This document shows positions 60,907-63,876 of a DNA stretch of 64,000 nt, in pieces. The translations under genes and the position numbers were made by a program. Numbering within the stretch: the stretch's first letter is position 1; each line of letters starts with the position of its first letter. Location of the stretch: assembly GCF_048403405.1 (NCBI RefSeq), contig NZ_CP183129.1, one strand, 5' to 3'. The stretch comes from Escherichia coli. Lineage in GTDB: Bacteria; Pseudomonadota; Gammaproteobacteria; Enterobacterales; Enterobacteriaceae. Below the pieces are notes generated by a model that searched no databases, had not been told where the DNA came from, and saw only the letters and a program-made list of their open reading frames with translations.

Positions 60907-61857
60907 ATGAGTATAAAAGAGCAAACGTTAATGACGCCTTACCTACAGTTTGACCGCAACCAGTGGGCAGCTCTGCGTGATTCCGTACCTATGACGTTAT
61001 CGGAAGATGAGATCGCCCGTCTCAAAGGTATTAATGAAGATCTCTCGTTAGAAGAAGTTGCCGAGATCTATTTACCTCTGTCACGTTTGCTGAACTTCTA
61101 TATAAGCTCGAATCTGCGCCGTCAGGCAGTTCTGGAACAGTTTCTTGGTACCAACGGGCAACGCATTCCTTACATTATCAGTATTGCTGGTAGTGTCGCT
61201 GTGGGGAAAAGTACAACCGCCCGTGTATTGCAGGCGCTATTAAGCCGTTGGCCGGAACATCGTCGTGTTGAACTGATCACGACTGATGGCTTCCTTCACC
61301 CTAATCAGGTACTGAAAGAACGTGGTCTGATGAAGAAGAAAGGCTTCCCGGAATCGTATGATATGCATCGCCTGGTGAAGTTTGTTTCCGATCTCAAATC
61401 CGGCGTGCCAAACGTTACAGCACCTGTTTACTCGCATCTTATTTATGATGTGATCCCGGATGGAGATAAAACGGTTGTTCAGCCTGATATTTTAATTCTT
61501 GAAGGGTTAAATGTCTTACAGAGCGGGATGGATTATCCACACGATCCACATCATGTATTTGTTTCTGATTTTGTCGATTTTTCGATATATGTTGATGCAC
61601 CGGAAGACTTACTTCAGACGTGGTATATCAACCGTTTCCTGAAATTCCGCGAAGGGGCTTTTACAGACCCGGATTCCTATTTTCATAACTACGCGAAATT
61701 AACTAAAGAAGAAGCGATTAATACTGCCATGACGTTGTGGAAAGAGATCAACTGGCTGAACTTAAAGCAAAATATTCTACCTACTCGCGAGCGCGCCAGT
61801 TTAATCCTGACGAAAAGTGCTAATCATGCGGTAGAAGAGGTCAGGCTACGCAAATAA
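60907..61857 (+). CDS. coaA: Pantothenate kinase (type I)
   Basis: 316 aa from ATG 60907 ([43 protein letters not shown]...) with Walker [10 protein letters not shown]; track ORF extends 52 codons upstream into the promoter region. Confidence 0.92.
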
Positions 61858-61862
61858 TTTTC

Positions 61863-61882
61863 AGGGGAGCTAATGCTCCCCT
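61863..61882. terminator. Hairpin shared by convergent coaA and birA
   Basis: AGGGGAGCTAATGCTCCCCT, perfect 8-bp stem, between the two stop codons. Confidence 0.5.
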
Positions 61883-61888
61883 ATCTTA

Positions 61889-62851
61889 TTATTCCGCACT
61901 ACGCAGGGATATTTCACCGCCCATCCAGGGTTTTATTATTCCATCCTGCTCAAGTAATAAAGCGCCCTGTTTGTCTATTCCGCGCGAAATGCCAAATATT
62001 TCTTTATCACCAATGATAAGTTTCACTGGGCGATTAATAAAATTATCCAGCTTTTCCCAGCGCGAAAGATAAGGTGCCAATCCTTCTTGCTCGAAGAGTT
62101 CCAGCGCCGTGCGTAATTCACGTATGAGCATGGCCGCCAACGTATTACGATCGAGATTGATCCCGGCTTCCTGCAGCGTGATCCACCCTTGATTAACGAC
62201 ACTCTCTTCAACACGACGCATTGCCATGTTGATCCCGGCACCAATGACTATTTGCGCCGCATCGCCGGTTTTGCCAGTTAGCTCCACAAGAATGCCTGCC
62301 AGCTTGCGATCCTGCAGATAGAGGTCATTAGGCCATTTAACACGAACTTTATCAGCACCCAGCTTGCGTAATACTTCCGCCATCACGATACCGATAACCA
62401 GACTTAAACCAATCGCCGCCGCCGGGCCTTGTTCCAGACGCCAGAACATCGACAAATATAAGTTTGCGCCAAAAGGCGAAAACCATTTCCGACCCCGGCG
62501 ACCACGGCCAGCCTGCTGGTATTCTGCAACACAGGCATCGCCCGATTTAAGCTCTCCGATACGATCAAGAAGGTACTGATTCGTGGAGTCAATAACGGGC
62601 AGCACAGTTACACTACCGCCATCCAGCTGACCCAATATCTGTTCAGCATTAAGTAACTGGATAGGCTCAGGCAGGCTGTATCCTTTACCCGGAACGGTAA
62701 AGACATCAACGCCCCAGTCACGCAGTGTCTGCATGTGTTTATTAATAGCCGCCCGGCTCATTCCCAGCGTTTCACCCAACTGCTCGCCAGAGTGAAATTC
62801 ACCGTTCGCTAATAGGGCGATCAATTTCAGTGGCACGGTGTTATCCTTCAT
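61889..62851 (-). CDS. birA: Bifunctional biotin-[acetyl-CoA-carboxylase] ligase and biotin operon repressor
   Basis: 320 aa, [39 protein letters not shown]...; ends ...SLRSAE followed by tandem TAA TAA. Confidence 0.95.
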
Positions 62852-63876
62852 GAAATCGTCTCCACTGCGCCCACTTCACCTGATGCACCAATAAAGCGGA
62901 CTTCAGGCTCAAGCCAGACATTAAATTTTTCACCCACTTTTTGTCTTACATGGTGTGCCAGTTGCACCACATCTTCGCTTTTTGCATTGTCTTCATTAAT
63001 GAGAACTAACGCCTGTTGACGGTGCACCGCAGCCCCACCCATTTGCATCCCTTTTAGCTGGCACTGATCGATAAGCCAACCTGCTGCCAGTTTTACTGAA
63101 CCATCCGCCTGGGGGTAATTTGGTGCTGTTGGAAATTGTGACAGTAATGCTTTAGCCGTTTCAGCAGATACAACAGGGTTTTTGAAGAAACTACCGGCAT
63201 TGCCATTCACTTTTGGGTCAGGGAGTTTGGTGGTGCGCATATGACACACCGCATTAAATACTTGCTGTGGCGTTACTGTTATAGGATCCAGACGAGTTAA
63301 GTCACCATACGTTAGTACAGGTTGCCACTCTTTTGGCAGACGCAGACCTACGGCTACAATGGCGAAGCGGTCCTGGTATTCATGTTTAAAAATACTGTCG
63401 CGATAGCCAAAACGGCACTCTTTGGCAGTTAAGCGCACTTGCTTGCCTGTCGCCAATTCAACACAGTCAACATAAGCGCAAACTCGCTGTAATTCTACGC
63501 CATAAGCACCAATATTCTGGATAGGTGATGAGCCGACACAACCAGGAATTAATGCCAGATTTTCCAGACCAGGCATACCTTCCTGCAAAGTGTATTTTAC
63601 CAGGCGATGCCAGTTTTCTCCGGCTCCTACATGTAAATACCACGCATCAGGTTCATCATGAATTTCGATACCTTTGATCCGGTTGATGATCACCGTACCG
63701 CGATAGTCTTCCAGAAAAAGTACATTACTTCCTTCACCCAGAATAAGAACGGATTGTCCTTTTGCGGTTGCATGCTGCCAGGCATTGAGTAGTTGTTGTT
63801 CGTCTTCGGCACATACAATGTGCTGAGCATTATGATCAATGCCAAATGTGTTCCAGGGTTTTAAGGAGTGGTTCAT
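62848..63876 (-). CDS. murB: UDP-N-acetylenolpyruvoylglucosamine reductase
   Basis: 342 aa, [54 protein letters not shown]...; FAD-binding; stop overlaps birA start by 4 bp. Confidence 0.95.

Follow-up and report, generated by a model that had tools for sequence, protein, structure and literature searches.

The closest described relative of the gene studied here is birA of E. coli K-12 (b3973, NP_418404.1; PDB 1bia, 1hxd, and 2ewn), which encodes a group II bifunctional biotin protein ligase and repressor. In MG1655, birA occupies NC_000913.3 4173082-4174047, is 966 nt long, specifies 321 aa, and ends GCA GAA AAA TAA; the K-12 chain deposited as 1bia_A likewise has 321 residues. BirA proteins of other Enterobacteriaceae, including Citrobacter koseri, C. 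amalonaticus, and Klebsiella oxytoca, as well as the protein in PDB entry 8f8u, which we take to be a K. pneumoniae-type BirA, have the terminus ...SLRSAE. Two E. coli proteins, WP_000654638.1 of strain 7/2 and WP_000654623.1 of ST38, are 320 aa long. A second kind of relative is the tandem, or "fail-safe," stop. No evidence of selection on additional stop codons in bacteria was found by Ho and Hurst (2019; PMC6764699), who also report that T is favored after bacterial stop codons.

We analyzed a 64,000-nt stretch of E. coli DNA from contig NZ_CP183129.1, hereafter the window, in which birA and its surroundings comprise the following features.

61889..62851, minus strand: birA coding sequence, 320 codons plus the first TAA; bifunctional biotin-[acetyl-CoA-carboxylase] ligase and bio operon repressor
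61889..61891, minus strand: primary birA stop codon, TAA at codon 321, placed by alignment with K-12 and other E. coli
61886..61888, minus strand: second in-frame TAA, redundant in the window; the stop codon of K-12 and most E. coli
61863..61882, between the convergent birA and coaA: G+C-rich hairpin GGGGAGC-ATTA-GCTCCCC, located by consensus scan and folding
60907..61857, plus strand: coaA, type I pantothenate kinase, convergent with birA; the ORF ends at 61857
62848..63876, minus strand: murB, upstream of birA; its stop and the birA start share 4 nt (ATGA)

The murB-birA order and the convergent coaA of the window are those of K-12. The coaA start, MSIKEQ..., lies 52 codons into the mechanically called ORF, and the gene is annotated at 951 nt both in the identical strain 7/2 and in K-12. 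On the minus strand, positions 61886 to 61894 read GAA TAA TAA; the 3' end of birA is GCG GAA TAA TAA, the protein stops at 320 aa with the terminus ...SLRSAE, and the base following the first stop is T, i.e., a TAAT context. The sequence-only reading had described a birA that ends in tandem stops after 320 aa, had given K-12 BirA as a 321-aa protein ending ...SAEK, and had proposed a lysine-to-stop change at the last codon. The ORF at 61889..62851, the 966-nt MG1655 gene together with 1bia_A, and the alignment of codon 321 (AAA to TAA) agree with it on each of these points, and alignment with the K-12 birA 3' end, the check that it had suggested, showed that K-12 does differ here (AAA TAA).

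The difference resides in a single base, 61891, which is T on the minus strand versus A in K-12 and changes Lys321 to a stop. The K-12 stop codon is preserved in the window alignment as the second TAA. An origin by indel or frameshift was rejected: birA plus the spacer to coaA is equal in length in the two genomes (966 + 28 nt in K-12 and 963 + 31 nt in the window, where 31 nt separate the coaA stop from the first birA stop), and the site aligns without gaps. The tandem stop exists because a new stop arose one codon upstream of a preexisting one, and no argument from chance is necessary. Over the 966 nt of the gene there are 30 nucleotide differences between the window and K-12, 22 synonymous and 8 nonsynonymous. 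The two proteins share gene context and a three-domain architecture and are identical at 315/320 residues; the window protein lacks Lys321 and carries I40M (inside the HTH domain), K70E, A82T, I108V, and A248T. Its residues 1 to 320 align with residues 1 to 320 of 1bia_A (E = 8.5e-209).

All three BirA domains are complete in the window protein. The N-terminal winged helix-turn-helix (Pfam HTH_11) spans residues 9 to 58 (47.6 bits versus a cutoff of 25), the central catalytic domain BPL_LplA_LipB (PF03099) spans residues 84 to 208 (111.6 bits), and the SH3-like BPL_C domain (PF02237) spans residues 271 to 317, covers profile positions 1 to 48 of 48, and scores 50.2 bits in both the window and K-12. 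In both alleles, residue 317 is the last of BPL_C, and residue 321 lies outside every Pfam domain. The GRGRRGR biotin/ATP-binding loop at 115 and K183 are kept, as in K-12. The window protein is 100% identical to WP_000654638.1, which the PGAP annotation presents as an intact BirA coding sequence without a pseudogene flag. The 320-aa allele is a common natural variant, already annotated, with all BirA domains intact. The extreme C terminus also appears to accept additions: PDB entry 4wf2, 327 residues long, can be aligned with the window BirA from residue 1 onward, so its surplus beyond the native 321 residues is C-terminal, and we take this surplus to be a tag; the BirA terminus thus tolerates lengthening as well.

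We recovered outgroup sequences with a degenerate DNA pattern for the BirA C-terminal peptide, which yielded 71 Enterobacteriaceae species-representative loci, 65 of them non-Escherichia; Salmonella, E. fergusonii, K. pneumoniae, and the canonical E. coli representative are absent from these pattern-scan loci. A stop codon stands directly after ...SAE in 64 of the 65 non-Escherichia representatives, and in 10 of these 64 species a second stop follows immediately. In both C. koseri and C. amalonaticus, the end of birA is exactly GCA GAA TAA TAA. Other Enterobacteriaceae birA genes thus resemble the window in how the protein ends, whereas over the whole gene they are only 72 to 78% identical to it in nucleotide sequence. 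Among the scanned loci, the AAA TAA form encoding Lys321 is restricted to five Escherichia representatives, namely, E. albertii, E. whittamii, E1V33, MOD1-EC7003, and the divergent "E. coli" SCPM-O-B-8794. The Lys321 residue of K-12 looks like an Escherichia-specific extension by one codon through stop loss, and parsimony on a sparse sample of Escherichia would make Lys321 the derived state and the window end a restored one.

One further representative, the divergent "E. coli" E69 (CP089930.1), has GCA GAA TAA TAA, as in Citrobacter. Either the stop loss may be later than the split of E69, or there may have been two reversions. The E69 genome is 4.44 Mb, its birA is 94% identical to that of E. 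coli, and it forms a separate species-level representative despite its E. coli label.

Two other loci in the scan deserve mention. In Enterobacter sichuanensis WCHECL1597, codon 321 is CAA rather than TAA, and the protein gains 3 aa (QPD) before an in-frame TGA; three sister loci in Enterobacter/Lelliottia read TAA CCG GAT TGA, and the CAA is an independent stop loss in birA. A contig assigned to "Chryseobacterium sp. 18061" (CACSKA010000031.1) carries an enterobacterial birA that is 95% identical to that of Citrobacter sp. 18056, from the same project; this assembly is probably mislabeled or contaminated.

To count alleles in E. coli, we used 30-mers positioned so that any 28-nt megablast word spans the variant site. 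Of 5,426 complete E. coli genomes, 318 (5.9%) contain the exact window 30-mer; their sources are human, swine (ETEC), dog, gull, swan, chicken, and water. An 81-nt core surrounding the site was matched in 5,411 of the 5,426 genomes and falls into discrete identity classes, of which one, with 318 members, is identical to the window. The other classes (98.8, 96.3, 95.1, and 92.6% identity), as judged by representatives that included ST131, O157:H7, ATCC 25922, K-12, and others, carry AAA, with birA annotated at 966 nt. In the nearest class (IDR19, GPEC60), which also has AAA, base 61891 alone separates the 81-nt core from that of the window. The TAA allele shares the linked variants GCG and GAT with this nearest class; at those two positions, the rest of the sampled E. 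coli, together with E. albertii and MOD1-EC7003, read GCA and GAA. We rejected repeated mutation to TAA on other backgrounds within E. coli, since 30-mers placing TAA on the three other GCA/GCG and GAA/GAT combinations, searched with the window 30-mer as a positive control, gave 0 matches in the 5,426 complete genomes. The confinement of TAA to one local haplotype is consistent with a single origin, a reading that draws on this local haplotype and not on a genome phylogeny.

The short protein is not confined to one amino acid sequence. WP_000654623.1, from ST38, also ends at residue 320 and differs from the window BirA at five other residues; the short form is therefore old enough to have diversified.

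We propose that the ancestral birA would have ended ...SLRSAE-stop, with GAA TAA TAA as in Citrobacter; that the first stop would have mutated from TAA to AAA in an ancestor of Escherichia, the adjoining in-frame TAA capping the gain at one lysine; and that a later A-to-T transversion in one E. coli lineage would have turned AAA (Lys321) back into TAA and restored the ancestral 320-aa protein. Translation would then stop after Glu320 and leave the former stop as a redundant second TAA. Most simply, the 320-aa end in the window is a back-mutation to the family-wide BirA terminus, and the ...SLRSAE end that it has in common with other Enterobacteriaceae would be shared by reversion rather than by descent. 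We put the probability that the window allele is a natural, near-neutral point polymorphism of birA that restores the ancestral end by back-mutation at roughly 85%.

The alternative that survives best, although we consider it unlikely, is that TAA TAA in the window lineage is the ancestral end, either never lost or brought back by recombination with an Escherichia lineage that carries TAA, with no back-mutation at all. The outgroup stops at codon 321, the exact GCA GAA TAA TAA of the two Citrobacter species, and the TAA TAA of E69, an Escherichia-level representative, are what such a history would predict. However, TAA in the window sits on a doubly derived GCG/GAT background whose AAA form is extant and differs at that base alone, and it is for this reason that back-mutation is favored over retention; AAA is, moreover, the state in E. 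albertii, E. whittamii, E1V33, MOD1-EC7003, and all other sampled E. coli classes. As for a donor, the sequence downstream of the stops is TAA TAA ATA AGG in E69 versus TAA TAA GAT AGG in the window, and there is no sign of an imported tract. An E69-like source was rejected, as the E69 32-mer had 0 matches across the complete RefSeq E. coli genomes (n = 5,426).

Selection of the base through an effect on RNA, whether on the coaA terminator and the convergent 3' ends or through a stronger stop context for birA (TAAT versus TAAG), we regard as very improbable. The hairpin between the two genes is terminator-like in both directions, with pattern-based sites on both strands at 61862 to 61883 (2 found versus 0.3 expected), and it folds at about -20 kcal/mol (z = -5.3 to -5.6). 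Its coaA-side T-run, ATCTTATTAT, extends into the birA stop codons, so a substitution there touches the tail of the putative coaA terminator. Initial folds had differing window offsets and are not comparable; we therefore repeated the folding on identical 51-nt RNAs in which only the single-nucleotide polymorphism was toggled. The minimum free energy went from -17.6 to -20.0 kcal/mol in the coaA sense and from -18.9 to -20.3 kcal/mol in the birA sense. This gain, which would favor an RNA effect, is due to a weak 6-bp A-U outer helix, whereas the core G+C stem and loop are the same with either base. Seen from the coaA strand, the variant is a T-to-A change about 9 to 10 nt past the terminator stem, on the far edge of the T-run, and the energy differences are small and come from weak A-U pairs. 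Strains of E. coli also differ freely in the hairpin itself: its K-12 counterpart (L001 2052-2071, GGGGAGTATTCGCTCCCC) is weaker (-12.3/-15.2 versus about -17 to -20 kcal/mol in the window) and is flagged as terminator-like in the coaA direction only, whereas that of the window is flagged in both, and in one strain the hairpin is interrupted by IS4. TAA has also failed to recur on other haplotype backgrounds.

The interrupted hairpin is that of strain RMDEC465 (L011, NZ_CM177019.1; locus 345-664), where the IS4 lies within the birA/coaA terminator; the transposase coding sequence starts 33 nt after the birA stop, and the alignment to other strains breaks in the 3' arm of the stem.

In the stop context, the T after the first birA stop matches the preference reported by Ho and Hurst (PMC6764699), which speaks for an RNA-level benefit. 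By formal definition, the adjacent in-frame TAA TAA at 61886 to 61891 is a tandem stop, and in this the window resembles fail-safe arrangements; it differs from them in that nothing suggests selection on the second stop. More probably, the second TAA is simply what remains of the old stop, not a selected fail-safe. UAAU is regarded as a very efficient termination signal in E. coli, and termination in the window should therefore at least equal that at the UAAG of K-12.

The substitution also creates a promoter-like match by turning AAAAAT into the -10-like AATAAT (GTGAAA-18-AATAAT, 61917..61888, minus strand; none in K-12). A new promoter was rejected as a chance finding, with 1 promoter-like match against 0.7 expected.

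A sequencing or assembly error in the window, for which one could cite only that K-12 differs by a single base, was rejected, because the identical 30-mer is shared by 318 independently assembled complete genomes, and the 24-kb flank of the window is 100% identical to those of MS 69-1, TUM14771, and other carriers.

The window allele is almost certainly neutral. Neutrality of the Lys321-to-stop change is by far the likeliest reading, since the domains are untouched, the C terminus is tolerant, as 4wf2 illustrates, and the outgroup proteins end at the same residue; the window BirA is otherwise intact and presumably fully functional. A truncated gene or pseudogene was rejected on related grounds: the loss is residue 321 only, the domains are complete, the PGAP coding sequence is intact, and 64/65 outgroups have the same end. 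The expectation of the sequence-only reading that the change is probably functionally neutral gains support from these observations and from the 318/5,426 carriers, their varied sources, and the diversified alleles. Our search of the literature on BirA C-terminal truncations returned proximity-labeling and unrelated work only, with none on residue 321.

Lys321 may still have a subtle effect on dimerization, repression, or stability. That the residue matters in earnest, for dimerization-coupled repression or for stability, or that the base tunes the shared birA/coaA terminator and with it pantothenate kinase expression, strikes us as a long shot. Were it true, biotin or CoA regulation would set the ~6% of strains that make a 320-aa BirA apart from the rest.

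The biological importance of the variant is very little. It does illustrate that K-12 is not always ancestral or typical, Lys321 being apparently an Escherichia-specific appendage that most relatives lack, and for the much-used BirA/BioID enzyme it offers further reassurance that the extreme C terminus tolerates change. If the ancestor of Escherichia had TAA TAA, the second stop would have held the extension to one residue; birA would then be a tidy case in which a neighboring in-frame stop caps a stop loss at a single residue and one base reverses it.

The birA-coaA region was also encountered on two records classed as plasmids. One of them, NZ_CP170379.1 (294 kb, strain 1428_w1_hybrid), may be a piece of chromosome, a large integrated replicon, or a misclassified one.
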